DNA of 64,000 bases, from assembly GCF_003790525.1 (NCBI RefSeq), contig NZ_CP033635.1. The stretch is one strand, 5' to 3'. Position numbers and translations under genes: made by a program. The notes beneath the pieces were generated by a model. The model saw only the letters and a list, made by a program, of their open reading frames with translations. It had not been told where the DNA came from and searched no databases. The first letter of the stretch is position 1; the number at the start of each line of letters is the position of its first letter. Positions 3,897 to 35,047 of this stretch are shown here, in pieces. The stretch comes from Escherichia coli. Its GTDB lineage: Bacteria; Pseudomonadota; Gammaproteobacteria; Enterobacterales; Enterobacteriaceae.

Positions 3897-5537
3897 ATGG
3901 AATCTAATAATGGGGAAGCCAAAATCCAGAAAGTGAAGAACTGGTCTCCCGTGTGGATATTTCCTATCGTCACGGCGCTCATTGGGGCCTGGGTTCTTTT
4001 TTATCATTACAGCCATCAGGGGCCGGAAGTGACCCTGATCACCGCGAATGCGGAAGGAATAGAAGGTGGTAAAACCACCATTAAAAGCCGTAGCGTTGAC
4101 GTCGGCGTGGTTGAAAGCGCCACACTGGCTGATGATTTGACGCACGTTGAAATCAAAGCGCGGCTGAATTCCGGTATGGAAAAATTGCTGCATAAAGATA
4201 CCGTCTTTTGGGTGGTGAAACCGCAGATTGGTCGAGAAGGGATTAGCGGCCTGGGAACGCTGCTGTCTGGGGTTTATATCGAACTGCAGCCAGGCGCAAA
4301 AGGCAGCAAAATGGATAAATACGATTTGCTGGACTCGCCACCGTTGGCCCCGCCTGATGCGAAAGGTATCCGTGTGATTCTCGATAGCAAAAAAGCCGGG
4401 CAGCTCTCGCCAGGAGATCCCGTGCTGTTCCGTGGCTATCGGGTAGGTTCGGTTGAAACCAGCACCTTCGATACGCAAAAACGCAATATCAGCTATCAAC
4501 TGTTCATCAATGCACCTTATGACCGACTGGTGACCAGCAATGTTCGCTTCTGGAAAGATAGTGGCATTGCGGTTGATTTGACGTCAGCGGGAATGCGTGT
4601 GGAGATGGGCTCATTGACAACGCTGCTTAGTGGCGGTGTCAGCTTTGATGTGCCGGAAGGTCTGGATTTAGGGCAGCCAGTGGCACCGAAAACAGCTTTC
4701 GTTTTGTATGATGATCAGAAGAGCATTCAGGATTCGTTGTACACCGATCACATTGATTATCTGATGTTCTTTAAAGATTCGGTACGCGGTCTGCAACCGG
4801 GAGCTCCGGTAGAATTCCGGGGTATTCGCCTGGGTACCGTAAGCAAAGTGCCATTCTTTGCGCCGAATATGCGTCAGACATTTAACGATGATTACCGTAT
4901 TCCGGTACTGATTCGTATCGAGCCAGAGCGGCTGAAAATGCAGCTTGGAGAAAATGCGGATGTTGTTGAGCACCTTGGCGAATTGTTGAAACGTGGTTTA
5001 CGCGGATCGCTGAAAACCGGAAACCTGGTCACTGGCGCACTGTATGTTGATCTCGATTTCTATCCAAATACGCCTGCAATAACCGGTATTCGTGAATTTA
5101 ATGGTTATCAGATTATCCCGACCGTTAGCGGCGGTCTGGCGCAAATCCAGCAACGACTGATGGAAGCGTTGGATAAGATCAACAAACTGCCATTGAATCC
5201 GATGATTGAACAGGCAACCAGTACGCTTTCTGAAAGTCAGCGCACAATGAAAAACCTGCAAACGACGCTGGATAGCATGAACAAGATCCTCGCCAGCCAG
5301 TCGATGCAGCAGTTACCGACGGATATGCAGTCAACGTTGCGTGAATTGAATCGCAGTATGCAGGGCTTCCAGCCTGGCTCCGCAGCCTACAACAAGATGG
5401 TGGCGGATATGCAGCGACTTGATCAGGTGTTGCGAGAACTGCAACCGGTGCTGAAAACGCTCAACGAGAAGAGTAACGCGCTGGTATTTGAAGCGAAGGA
5501 CAAAAAAGATCCAGAGCCGAAGAGGGCGAAACAATGA
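3897..5537 (+). CDS. pqiB: MCE-domain envelope-spanning protein PqiB
   Basis: In-frame ATG at 3897 (MESNNGEAKIQ...) gives 546 aa, the PqiB length; the start overlaps the pqiA stop region. Confidence 0.93.
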   Translation: MESNNGEAKIQKVKNWSPVWIFPIVTALIGAWVLFYHYSHQGPEVTLITANAEGIEGGKTTIKSRSVDVGVVESATLADDLTHVEIKARLNSGMEKLLHKDTVFWVVKPQIGREGISGLGTLLSGVYIELQPGAKGSKMDKYDLLDSPPLAPPDAKGIRVILDSKKAGQLSPGDPVLFRGYRVGSVETSTFDTQKRNISYQLFINAPYDRLVTSNVRFWKDSGIAVDLTSAGMRVEMGSLTTLLSGGVSFDVPEGLDLGQPVAPKTAFVLYDDQKSIQDSLYTDHIDYLMFFKDSVRGLQPGAPVEFRGIRLGTVSKVPFFAPNMRQTFNDDYRIPVLIRIEPERLKMQLGENADVVEHLGELLKRGLRGSLKTGNLVTGALYVDLDFYPNTPAITGIREFNGYQIIPTVSGGLAQIQQRLMEALDKINKLPLNPMIEQATSTLSESQRTMKNLQTTLDSMNKILASQSMQQLPTDMQSTLRELNRSMQGFQPGSAAYNKMVADMQRLDQVLRELQPVLKTLNEKSNALVFEAKDKKDPEPKRAKQ

Positions 5538-6097
5538 AAAAGTGGCTAGTGACGATTGCAGCACTGTGGCTGGCCGGATGCAGCTCCGGCGAAATTAATA
5601 AAAACTATTACCAGTTACCTGTGGTGCAGGGCGGTACACAAAGTACCGCCAGCCAGGGTAATCGCCTGTTATGGGTAGAGCAGGTCGCTGTTCCTGACTA
5701 TCTGGCGGGAAATGGTGTGGTTTATCAAACCAGTGATGTGAAGTATGTGATTGCCAACAACAACTTGTGGGCCAGCCCGTTGGATCAACAGTTGCGCAAC
5801 ACTCTGGTTGCCAACCTGAGCACGCAACTGCCCGGCTGGGTGGTTGCCTCCCAGCCTCTGGGAAGCGCCCAGGATACGCTCAATGTTACCGTAACGGAGT
5901 TTAACGGGCGATATGATGGCAAGGTCATTGTCAGTGGTGAATGGCTGTTGAACCACCAGGGACAACTGATCAAACGTCCGTTCCGTCTGGAAGGGGTGCA
6001 AACTCAGGATGGTTACGATGAGATGGTTAAAGTACTGGCCAGTGTCTGGAGTCAGGAAGCCGCTTCTATTGCGCAAGAGATAAAGCGTCTACCTTAA
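5534..6097 (+). CDS. pqiC: Outer-membrane lipoprotein PqiC (YmbA)
   Basis: 187-aa ORF with lipoprotein signal (LAGCSS lipobox); start overlaps the pqiB stop (ATGA). Confidence 0.92.
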   Translation: MKKWLVTIAALWLAGCSSGEINKNYYQLPVVQGGTQSTASQGNRLLWVEQVAVPDYLAGNGVVYQTSDVKYVIANNNLWASPLDQQLRNTLVANLSTQLPGWVVASQPLGSAQDTLNVTVTEFNGRYDGKVIVSGEWLLNHQGQLIKRPFRLEGVQTQDGYDEMVKVLASVWSQEAASIAQEIKRLP

Positions 6098-33475: not shown

Positions 33476-33680
33476 TATCAGGCTCCCTCGTGGAGCCTTT
33501 TTTATATCTGCCTTATTTTTCTTCAACGCTGTATGTATAGTAAGCGATAACCTGTTGATTATTGAATCTTTCGGGGAGATGGCTTATAACATTTCTTACC
33601 TGACCAGGGTACCGGGAACCAACACCTTACTGGCGTGTTGCTGTCTTTCAAGACCAGACGAGGTTAACAGTGAATATTGA
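33450..33680 (+). CDS. ymcE: Small protein YmcE
   Basis: 76-aa [34 protein letters not shown]... at the K-12 position; coding status is uncertain because a terminator lies within it. Confidence 0.6.
   Translation: MRRWISQNNIRLPRGAFFISALFFFNAVCIVSDNLLIIESFGEMAYNISYLTRVPGTNTLLACCCLSRPDEVNSEY
33481..33504 (+). terminator. Intrinsic terminator downstream of cspG and the small Cys-rich ORF
   Basis: ggctccctcgtggagcc followed by a T6 run; it lies inside the 5' part of the annotated ymcE frame. Confidence 0.7.
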
Positions 33681-33843
33681 AGAGTTAAAAAAACAAGCCG
33701 AAACGGAAATCGCCGACTTTATCGCGCAAAAAATCGCCGAGCTGAACAAGAATACAGGGAAAGAAGTCTCTGAAATTCGCTTCACCGCACGGGAAAAAAT
33801 GACCGGGCTTGAAAGTTATGATGTCAAAATCAAAATAATGTGA
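33670..33843 (+). CDS. gnsA: GnsA (suppressor of secG null, fatty-acid-related small protein)
   Basis: 57 aa from a GTG start: VNIEELKKQAETEIADFIAQKIAELNKNTGKEVSEIRFTAREKMTGLESYDVKIKIM. Confidence 0.85.
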   Translation: MNIEELKKQAETEIADFIAQKIAELNKNTGKEVSEIRFTAREKMTGLESYDVKIKIM

Positions 33844-33849
33844 TTTTGT

Positions 33850-33877
33850 GAACATCACCCCGTGCGAGGTGATGTTC
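33850..33877. terminator. Hairpin between gnsA and yccM (convergent)
   Basis: Inverted repeat gaacatcacc...ggtgatgttc. Confidence 0.6.
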
Positions 33878-33891
33878 CGCTTGTTGCTAAT

Positions 33892-34965
33892 TTAGTGACC
33901 AATCATTGGCGCTTGTGGAATTATGCGTCGGTACAATTCCTGCGGTACCGGGCTTTGCCATACTCCCGCATACATTGCGTAACCAATCACCGCAAACATA
34001 ATCCCCAGAACCAGTAGTGTCATTAACCAGCCAGACAACGCAAAAGCTTTTTTATTTGCCGCAGGTTTTTGCAGTGAAAAGGTCAATGTTGAGGCTACCG
34101 GACATGACTCTACGCAAGTCATACAGCCGGTACATTCCACTGTTCGTACCTGAATTAATTTATCGACCGGGATCCGCGATGGGCAATTTTTTGCGCATTT
34201 GCCACAGTCGATACAACTTTCGGCATTGCGACGAATCTTAAACGGTGATAATAGCGAAACCACGCCCATCAGCGCGCCATATGGGCAAAGATAACGACAC
34301 CAGGCATGGCGAATAAACAGGCTGGCAATCAGCAAAACGGTCACGCTGATTAATGTCGCGGTCCCCATATGGCGAAAGAAATCGAGCATTTTAACGTCCA
34401 TCACCACGCTGTAGGGCGACAACATAAAATAGTGAATCGCCTGAGCGGGCATCAATAACGCGATATAGAGAAAAAAACTCAACAGCAAATACTTCACGCC
34501 ACGCAGAGGAATATCCAGACAGCGGGGAAGGACACATTGCCGACCAAACAGTTTGTTACCGAGATCGCCGATTAATTCAGAAAGCGTACCAACCGGGCAT
34601 AACCATGAGCAAAAGGCCTTTTTGAGTAATAGACTGATGACGATAAAAGCGACCAATAACAGCATCGCGGCGGCGTGGACGGACGGTAACTGGCCTGTTG
34701 CAAGGCTATATTTCAGATTCATCAGACCGGCAATCGGTAGCCAGCCTTCGATGCCTCCTGGCCTGGCGACAAATGTCGTACTACCTGCCGTTTCGTAATA
34801 GCGCACCCAATACCAGAACGTGATGGCAATATAAATATTCATTGCCAACAGTAATAATTGCGTCGCTTTACGCCAGGTCGTGGCATTGCGCCAGTCATTC
34901 CACGGTAATTTGCCGCCCGTCGTGCCTGGCCGCCGCTGCCAGCGGGTTCTTTTTTTCTCTGCCAT
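33892..34965 (-). CDS. yccM: Membrane ferredoxin-type protein YccM (NapH/MauN-like, 4Fe-4S)
   Basis: 357-aa ORF with multiple CxxCxxCxxxCP motifs and transmembrane helices. Confidence 0.9.
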   Translation of the reverse strand: MAEKKRTRWQRRPGTTGGKLPWNDWRNATTWRKATQLLLLAMNIYIAITFWYWVRYYETAGSTTFVARPGGIEGWLPIAGLMNLKYSLATGQLPSVHAAAMLLLVAFIVISLLLKKAFCSWLCPVGTLSELIGDLGNKLFGRQCVLPRCLDIPLRGVKYLLLSFFLYIALLMPAQAIHYFMLSPYSVVMDVKMLDFFRHMGTATLISVTVLLIASLFIRHAWCRYLCPYGALMGVVSLLSPFKIRRNAESCIDCGKCAKNCPSRIPVDKLIQVRTVECTGCMTCVESCPVASTLTFSLQKPAANKKAFALSGWLMTLLVLGIMFAVIGYAMYAGVWQSPVPQELYRRIIPQAPMIGH

Positions 34966-35047
34966 GATTTTGACAGTCCGTTAAGTTGCATACCAAATGC
35001 CACTATTCTAGTTGTTCTTAACTGGCTGATATTGATTCAAATCGCGT

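Follow-up and report, generated by a model that had tools for sequence, protein, structure and literature searches.

The yccM locus and its promoter

The stretch of DNA analysed here, hereafter the window, comprises 64,000 nucleotides (nt) of Escherichia coli contig NZ_CP033635.1 (assembly GCF_003790525.1), and our subject within it is yccM, an ATG-started open reading frame (ORF) of 357 amino acids plus stop on the minus strand. This is a real and already annotated gene, as the surrounding stretch (33600-35300) is 100% identical at the DNA level to E. coli SMS-3-5, where yccM is annotated as a '4Fe-4S binding protein', and was matched in 5416 of 5426 complete E. coli genomes. The start codon is supported because orthologues keep the N-terminus. 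A preliminary description of the locus had placed yccM convergent to gnsA and beside torS, and the coordinates bear this out, with gnsA at 33670-33843 on the plus strand and yccM downstream of torS on the same strand, across a gap of 82 nt in the window's strain. What is new here is a proposed re-assignment of yccM to regulons of nitric oxide (NO) stress, the definition of a distinct subfamily of NapH/NosR-type membrane proteins, and a set of testable partner candidates. The features on which the argument begins are the following.

33892..34965, minus strand: yccM coding sequence (ORF list; identity to SMS-3-5; two Pfam Fer4_5 matches plus Fer4)
34983..35005, minus strand: NsrR operator, an 11-1-11 inverted repeat, TAGTGGCATTTGGTATGCAACTT, 17 nt upstream of the yccM ATG and an exact copy of a published site
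35005..35010, minus strand: candidate -10 hexamer TAGAAT, as read from the sequence, overlapping the first operator base
35027..35039, minus strand: conserved upstream element TGAATCAATATCA, invariant across Escherichia including E. albertii

Binding of NsrR at the yccM promoter in vivo has been reported previously, by chromatin immunoprecipitation followed by sequencing (ChIP-seq) in strain CFT073 and by its microarray counterpart (ChIP-chip) in K-12 (PMC5320621). The site published in that study has one exact match in the window, against zero expected, and this match (34983-35005) is also the best to the NsrR consensus across all 64 kb. A consensus promoter scan of positions 33600-35400 found no full sigma-70 site in the torS-yccM gap, so that the yccM promoter would be weak or activator-dependent. 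The element TGAATCAATATCA, which overlaps the torS stop position of other strains, could be an activator site for such a weak promoter. The TAGAAT hexamer is invariant in four Escherichia sequences while adjacent torS codons vary. As a separate observation, the arrangement of bases within the upstream element resembles that of FNR half-sites, with unusual spacing.

Conservation of the NsrR operator and of the tor neighbourhood

Within Escherichia, including E. albertii, the position of the operator is conserved and its sequence largely kept. The orthologues in Citrobacter, Providencia, Pragia and an enterobacterial contig (L005), at 56-77% identity, are lone genes in unrelated surroundings, and the sites upstream of them match the NsrR operator at 15-16/22; NsrR-like sites were likewise present in 14 further Enterobacterales loci, at 14-18/22. 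The other intergenic gaps of the same loci provide a control for the AT-richness of intergenic DNA, in which 0 of 96 reached 15/22, compared with 10 of the 14 gaps upstream of yccM. Judging by these sites, the NsrR operator travels with yccM across Enterobacterales despite differing neighbours. Farther afield, sites upstream of Burkholderiales-like homologues score 12-14/22, and the best site at the Aeromonas homologue scores 13/22.

The tor genes have a different distribution. When all fetched yccM loci were surveyed by tblastn with Tor queries, TorS, TorT, TorC and TorA were found to flank yccM only in Escherichia (TorS in 3 of 3 loci), with no match in the 15 other Enterobacterales loci or in the Burkholderiales-like, Pelobacter or Aeromonas loci; a TorS-like (sensor-kinase) match was seen in only 2 of 63 acidobacterial loci. 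TorR-like matches occurred in 3 of the 15 other Enterobacterales loci, at 42% identity and 5 kb downstream of yccM in L005, where an OmpR-type regulator lies at that position, and at 28-31% identity and 6-8 kb from yccM in two Pectobacterium loci (L021, L023). Because no other tor gene is present in those loci, we take all three to be response-regulator paralogues. The position of yccM beside the tor genes looks accidental.

The preliminary description had drawn a link to the tor system from this position, and the survey removes it, as the adjacency is limited to Escherichia and the operator kept with yccM is an NsrR site rather than a tor signal. Its further suggestion, that YccM might serve as an electron conduit for a periplasmic reductase, likewise finds no footing in E. 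coli, where no NapG-like or other periplasmic partner gene adjoins yccM. A periplasmic reductase was a neighbour only in the Pelobacter/Oryzomonas lineage, in which the YccM homologue follows nrfHA, and NrfH is itself the quinol dehydrogenase of NrfA. The function of the protein had been called unclear, and indeed the searched literature contained no established function for YccM.

Genomic contexts in other lineages

Outside Enterobacterales, YccM homologues repeatedly occur near genes of NO and nitrite metabolism. On Pelobacter propionicus pPRO1, for example, one strand carries nrfH, an insertion sequence, nrfA, the YccM homologue (43% identity, starting 24 nt after nrfA), HPP, hcp, a PAS gene, ric and norV (flavorubredoxin), in that order, while the chromosome of Oryzomonas rubra carries hcp, PAS, nrfH, nrfA, YccM and HPP, followed by hemerythrin. 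In another Geobacterales genome, RIC is encoded 1.4 kb from the YccM homologue. The order in Aeromonas caviae is norV, norW, a DUF1971 gene of the YeaR family and the YccM homologue, and within Enterobacterales, in a metagenome-assembled genome of Providencia, ytfE and a NorV-like fragment adjoin yccM. Homologues in Peptoclostridium and Leptolinea (~28% identity) have uninformative neighbours.

The HPP-family membrane protein lies 18 nt behind the YccM homologue in both Pelobacter and Oryzomonas (L009 7006-7572; L097 8024-8590). The HPP family includes nitrite transporters, and the two products may act together in the arrangement nrfH-nrfA-YccM-HPP.

The largest body of contexts comes from Acidobacteriota. 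A scan of one genome per species found at least 571 YccM relatives, and the best 80 of these include ~65 Acidobacteriota loci, at 45-53% identity. For 63 acidobacterial loci, all ORFs within 6 kb were clustered without prior labels, and the following families recurred most often as neighbours.

CRP/FNR regulator: 16 loci
RIC/YtfE (ScdA_N plus hemerythrin): 13 loci, 11 of them within Acidobacteriota
TIGR04053 radical-SAM/SPASM protein: 11 loci
NnrS: 10 loci
Hemerythrin: 7 loci
qNOR NorB: 7 loci
Hcp: 5 loci
Cytochrome bd subunit I and CysK: a few loci each

At least one gene for NO detoxification or repair lies within 6 kb in 20 of the 63 loci, in several distinct arrangements, where a rough estimate from typical gene copy numbers, rather than a computed control, puts the chance level for a random 12-kb window at a few per cent. 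In addition, 32 of 62 acidobacterial loci carry an exact GTGA-N6-TCAC palindrome in the 300 nt ahead of the homologue, compared with a background of 0.011 per 300 nt in the same loci (P about 1e-45). The palindrome emerged from a scan for the canonical FNR/Dnr box (TTGAT-N4-ATCAA), which itself showed no enrichment upstream of the acidobacterial homologues. Many of the loci that carry the palindrome have no NO gene nearby, and the same box also precedes the NnrS(-NorB) operon, the TIGR04053 radical-SAM gene and cytochrome bd. The box, which in its extended form reads about TGTGAC-N4-GTCACA, matches the CRP-like consensus of HcpR, wTGTGAnnnnnnTCACAw (PMC1274295). We infer from this match that a CRP/HcpR-type factor binds the box. 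The acidobacterial GTGAC-N4-GTCAC box (L030-L093) looks like the mark of an undescribed NO-responsive regulon, and a CRP/FNR regulator gene often lies close by.

The YccM protein and its relatives

YccM combines five transmembrane (TM) helices with two kinds of cysteine motif, and its principal parts map to the window as follows.

34732..34764, minus strand: periplasmic loop-1 signature RPGGIEGWLPI (R68, P69, G74, L76, P77 and I78 invariant)
34594..34611, minus strand: first CxxxCP (C119, C123) at the cytoplasmic end of TM2, unchanged across 43 sequences (three phyla) and also present in 24 diverse representatives
34375..34413, minus strand: periplasmic loop-2 signature YSVVMDVKMLDFF (M193 and F197 invariant; Y185, D190 and K192 nearly so)
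34282..34299, minus strand: second CxxxCP (C223, C227) at the cytoplasmic end of TM4, conserved in the 43- and 24-sequence sets
34099..34215, minus strand: cytoplasmic 2x[4Fe-4S] ferredoxin domain, residues 251-262 plus 278-289
33895..34032, minus strand: TM5 (residues 312-333) and periplasmic tail (residues 334-357), from hydropathy and AlphaFold2 (W336 and H357 invariant)

Hydropathy and a confident AlphaFold2 model (predicted local distance difference test, pLDDT, 90.5; predicted template modelling score, pTM, 0.87) place the TM helices at about residues 28-58, 98-114, 148-171, 202-217 and 312-333, and the model has two helices at the C-terminus, 312-333 and 342-354. Since the N-terminal segment carries 10 Lys/Arg, the positive-inside rule would put the N-terminus in the cytoplasm, and from this it follows that all 14 cysteines would be cytoplasmic and the C-terminal 24 residues periplasmic; the predicted topology therefore has cytoplasmic cysteine motifs and a periplasmic C-terminal tail. 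Whereas 'several' CxxCxxCxxxCP motifs had been described, there are exactly two (residues 251-262 and 278-289), in addition to two CxxxCP half-motifs (residues 119-124 and 223-228). The remaining two cysteines, C144 and C149 (CVLPRC, window 34519-34536), occur in the window's YccM alone among 12 aligned sequences, position 149 being Trp in nearly all relatives, and are unlikely to be cofactor ligands because they are not conserved.

Conservation was assessed in 43 sequences drawn from Pseudomonadota, Thermodesulfobacteriota and Acidobacteriota. All 12 motif cysteines are invariant in this set, and a second group of residues, predicted to face the periplasm, is invariant or nearly so: R68, P69, G74, L76, P77 and I78 in loop 1, H97 at the start of TM2, Y185, D190, K192, M193, F196 and F197 in loop 2, W336 after TM5, and a terminal or second-to-last His (H357). 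The 24 far more diverse representatives retain RP..VE.(F/W)LPI, HPA, AD.KM and both CxxxCP pairs, and the C-terminal His is present in all 24, sometimes with an extension behind it. A search with the YccM profile gathered 764 clusters at 50% identity (E <= 1e-30). On this comparison of sequences, YccM represents a distinct subfamily of the NapH/NosR membrane module, marked by TM5 and by a conserved periplasmic face with a near-terminal His. That face (the loop motifs, H97, M193, W336 and the terminal His) is probably a second functional site, whether for a quinone, for a metal or for a partner protein. Our search found no solved structure for the NapH/NosR membrane module.

The relationship to named families was examined with curated models and profile comparisons. 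Pfam Fer4_5 (PF12801) matches YccM in two stretches (80.5 bits against a cut-off of 22), together with Fer4, and a multi-TM protein with PF12801 domains belongs to the 'NapH-like' Fer4_5 membrane iron-sulfur (Fe-S) superfamily. The scores for individual families, by contrast, all lie below their cut-offs: 92.8 against 234 bits for NapH (NF007013), 88.2 against 213.05 for NapH/MauN (TIGR02163), 75.9 against 1000 for NosR (NF046105), of which the C-terminal module alone was matched, and 33.9 against 316.7 for CcoG (TIGR02745). BLASTP aligns YccM with E. coli NapH at 30% identity over residues 81-288 (E 2e-18), and the 43-sequence profile aligns with NapH over 239 columns in hhalign (probability 99.1%, E 6e-19). 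Against Sinorhizobium meliloti FixG, which was verified as a CcoG (545 bits on TIGR02745), the alignment covers 72 columns only, those of the second CxxxCP and the ferredoxin domain (E 7e-8). The nearest annotated relatives in a tblastn search of plasmids were NosR/NirI and NapH, with NosR/NirI-type matches at E ~1e-13 and 30-34% identity over residues 76-290. By these scores, YccM is related to the NapH/NosR membrane module but falls outside each of the named families.

Each of these relatives shares part of the YccM plan. With NapH, YccM has in common four TM helices, two cytoplasmic CxxxCP motifs and a C-terminal 2x[4Fe-4S] domain, all of which align, but E. coli NapH (287 residues) ends soon after the ferredoxin domain whereas YccM adds TM5 and a 24-residue tail, and the NapH sequence differs across loop 2 and is unaligned across loop 1. 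Thus, of the NapH/MauN architecture assigned in the preliminary description, the core homology to NapH stands, while the curated cut-offs are missed and the fifth TM helix is extra. The gene also differs from napH in being stand-alone under NsrR, without napG or a nap operon; nap and mau genes are absent from around yccM in the window and were seen neither in the annotated neighbourhoods nor among the annotated recurrent clusters, although no query was directed at NapG. NosR/NirI and RdhC/PceC are membrane flavo-iron-sulfur proteins of nitrous oxide, nitrite and organohalide respiration that share the membrane module with YccM, and NosR/NirI are likewise tied to nitrogen-oxide metabolism. The N-terminal periplasmic domain that binds flavin mononucleotide (FMN), the hallmark of NosR/NirI, was not found in YccM by the Pfam scan, nor were FMN-binding or nos genes seen in the annotated neighbourhoods or recurrent neighbour families, where no ApbE query was run. 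CcoG (FixG/RdxA) belongs to the same broad Fer4_5 superfamily and has five TM helices and cytoplasmic Fe-S motifs, with a TM helix after the ferredoxin domain. It differs in that the Pfam scan found no Ig-like FixG_C domain in YccM and in that no cbb3 oxidase or copper genes lie near yccM.

Since no FMN-binding domain or gene was seen, YccM falls outside the 'flavinylated NapH-like system' of PMC8238504. A review has named YccM a CcoG homologue without the periplasmic Ig-like domain (PMC7558416), a label that, on the alignments above, is valid only at the level of the superfamily. The membrane module of NapH, NosR and RdhC is regarded as a quinol-linked electron-transfer unit (PMC5928378; PMC8238504), within which the chemistry of the CX3CP motifs is unresolved, as the iron content of NosR covers only two 4Fe-4S clusters (PMC5928378).

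A proposed role in the response to NO

The known members of the NsrR regulon in E. coli include hmp, ytfE, hcp-hcr, ygbA, yeaR-yoaG and nrf. yccM resembles them in having NsrR bound in vivo and an 11-1-11 operator near the start codon, and YccM homologues elsewhere adjoin ytfE/ric, hcp, norV, yeaR-like genes and nrfA. None of these other NsrR targets is, to our knowledge, an integral-membrane Fe-S protein, as YccM would be. Because the NsrR operator is conserved, and because homologues in other phyla lie beside NO or nitrite genes or share a regulator box with them, we consider it quite probable that YccM functions in the response to NO and nitrosative stress. The 12 invariant cysteines, the confident AlphaFold2 model and the NapH homology across the whole core argue in addition for electron transfer, and we lean slightly towards the fuller reading that YccM is a stand-alone, five-TM membrane Fe-S electron-transfer protein of NapH/NosR type that serves this response and not the tor system.

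Under such a scheme, NO would inactivate NsrR and so derepress yccM, and YccM would move electrons between the membrane quinone pool and an Fe-S chain on the cytoplasmic face, by analogy with the quinol oxidation proposed for NapH, in support of reductive NO detoxification or of the repair of NO damage. The most likely client would be the di-iron repair protein RIC/YtfE, as the most frequent neighbour, followed by Hcp, although we regard a specific role as electron donor to RIC or Hcp as rather unlikely. We know of no physiological reductant of RIC/YtfE. It is tempting to speculate, in a picture that we put forward tentatively and think unlikely to hold in full, that YccM-type proteins are a widespread and so far unrecognised component of NO defence, perhaps a membrane-bound, quinone-linked reductase for RIC/YtfE and/or Hcp in organisms without Hcr, or perhaps a protein that consumes NO or NO-derived species at the conserved periplasmic His/Met site, recruited independently by two unrelated regulators, NsrR and a CRP/HcpR-type factor. 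A role in the NO response would move yccM, a conserved E. coli gene without an assigned function, from a neighbour of tor to a member of a conserved NO-stress regulon with counterparts in several phyla, and would make YccM a candidate for two open questions, namely the reductant of RIC/YtfE and the link between membrane redox pools and cytoplasmic NO repair.

Published phenotypes of yccM mutants touch on this role. A Keio yccM mutant exposed to the NO donor nitroprusside showed a growth defect of 31 ± 15%, and its defects were 80 ± 2% with paraquat, 97 ± 5% with CuCl2 + H2O2 and 63 ± 70% with H2O2 (PMC11673782). The Keio mutant is also sensitive at the critical high temperature, a phenotype complemented by a plasmid copy (PMC5828445), and a yccM mutant is hypersensitive to blue light (PMC10782963). 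In addition, the NsrR ChIP-seq study described how a triple mutant in hmp, norVW and nrfA could scavenge NO anaerobically, an inducible activity whose gene was not identified there (PMC5320621).

Several observations weigh against a role in the NO response, or against parts of the scheme. Binding of NsrR in ChIP experiments is no proof of regulation, the searched literature contained no report of yccM induction by NO or of its derepression in an nsrR mutant, and the CFT073 supplement is without yccM. In two thirds of the acidobacterial loci, the 6 kb on either side contain no recognised NO gene, and one Geobacterales contig (L098 5678-8002) presents a different context altogether, with thioredoxin_3, thioredoxin, DsbD_TM (CcdA-like) and, last, YccM on one strand, across a 33-nt gap. 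The quinone site of YccM is proposed only by analogy with NapH and its candidate partners come from gene neighbourhood, while the scheme offers no route for electrons between the conserved periplasmic face and the cytoplasmic clusters. E. coli Hcp has a dedicated reductase, Hcr, and Salmonella has YtfE, yet no Salmonella orthologue was found among the top YccM matches; YccM would therefore be no obligate partner of Hcp or YtfE. The nitroprusside defect is modest, and 36 of the 64 mutants in the panel also responded (PMC11673782). The mutant phenotypes as a whole are pleiotropic and aerobic, so that they establish that the gene matters without identifying its role.

Alternative explanations

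Four other accounts of YccM have to be set beside a role in the NO response. That the protein is a NapH-type quinol dehydrogenase feeding a periplasmic reductase, as its position beside the genes of trimethylamine N-oxide reductase (tor) would suggest, seems improbable to us. The homology to NapH is true, spanning 239 profile columns, the literature holds the membrane module to be quinol-oxidising (PMC5928378; PMC8238504), and the homologue lies directly behind the periplasmic nitrite reductase genes nrfHA in Pelobacter and Oryzomonas. Adjacency to tor, however, was seen in Escherichia alone and in none of 15 other Enterobacterales loci, no NapG-like partner gene adjoins yccM in E. coli, the NapH and NapH/MauN scores are far below their cut-offs, the conserved control element is that of NsrR and not of TorR, and nrfH is present wherever nrfA adjoins. 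It also counts against a tor conduit that TorA already gets its electrons from TorC, a quinol-oxidising cytochrome. A CcoG-type cupric reductase, which would reduce Cu(II) to Cu(I) through its Fe-S clusters in copper handling, is in our judgement a distinctly unlikely alternative. It would agree with the topology of CcoG, whose five TM helices and cytoplasmic Fe-S motifs are also found in YccM, and with the His and Met conserved on the periplasmic face; NnrS, the neighbour in 10 acidobacterial loci, is moreover a haem-copper protein, and a YecH-family metal-binding protein is the neighbour in 6 of 6 Burkholderiales-like loci. The CcoG label of the review (PMC7558416) and the 97 ± 5% defect of the mutant with CuCl2 + H2O2 (PMC11673782) point the same way, but 45 of the 64 panel mutants share that sensitivity, which makes it unspecific (PMC11673782). 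Homology and context argue otherwise as well: YccM scores 33.9 against 316.7 bits on TIGR02745, FixG aligns over 72 columns compared with 239 for NapH, no FixG_C/Ig domain was detected, no FixG/CcoG was among the plasmid tblastn matches listed, the annotated neighbour families include no recurrent copper-homeostasis genes, and the regulators are of NO type rather than copper type.

It has also to be considered that the CxxxCP pairs are redox-active dithiols rather than cluster ligands, and that YccM is a membrane thiol/disulfide or de-nitrosylating oxidoreductase. The Geobacterales locus with two thioredoxins and DsbD_TM would fit this account, as would two recurrent neighbours in Acidobacteriota, CysK and a hexapeptide acyltransferase that may be CysE, the paraquat and peroxide sensitivity of the yccM mutant (PMC11673782), and the iron content of NosR, which amounts to two 4Fe-4S clusters only and leaves the role of CX3CP open (PMC5928378). 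The thiol-redox context, however, occurs in a single locus, and the account is compatible with a role in NO stress instead of exclusive of it; as a rival we give it little chance. The least probable proposal by far, which we consider most unlikely, is a place in the 'sulfur relay system', under which yccM was listed when its knockout was found to be heat-sensitive like tus mutants (PMC5828445). No experiment stands behind the label in that paper, no sulfur-relay or tRNA-thiolation family or domain was detected in YccM, genes of this kind are missing from the annotated recurrent neighbours, and heat sensitivity is common to many membrane and energy mutants. With both homology and context lacking, we reject this label.

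Further observations at the locus and in related genomes

A His/Cys-rich metal-binding protein of the YecH family (DUF2492, TIGR03853) is encoded immediately ahead of the YccM homologue in six of six Burkholderiales-like loci, and the YecH-YccM pair lies between parB and the atp operon (L006-L008, about 5513-5875; L026-L028). Because they are syntenic, these loci probably represent one lineage. In E. coli, yecH is located elsewhere and has no NsrR-like site (best 11/22), so the link to YecH does not extend to this species.

Compared with other Escherichia, the torS gene of the window lacks 1 nt close to its 3' end and reads GGTT-AATAAG in place of GGTTGAATAAG. The site lies in window positions 35048-35067 on the minus strand, between 35063 and 35064, and the deletion alters the last ~8 codons and sets the torS stop at 35048. 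The torS gene of SMS-3-5 is entered in RefSeq as a frameshifted pseudogene. The window's TorS may still be functional, as the extreme C-terminus alone is affected.

An antisense transcript, 'yccM-as', is listed with a TadA-dependent A-to-I RNA editing event in a 2026 paper (PMC13170351); it corresponds to the plus strand, antisense to window positions 33892-34965. At the other end of the gene, between gnsA and yccM, lies one further feature.

33850..33877, no strand assigned: GC-rich 12-bp hairpin, terminator-like on both strands (RNA fold)

The hairpin has a folding energy of -20.2 kcal/mol (z = -6.1), with 0 of 200 shuffled sequences equally stable, and although a clear U-tract is present on neither side, it is probably a bidirectional terminator serving the two convergent genes.

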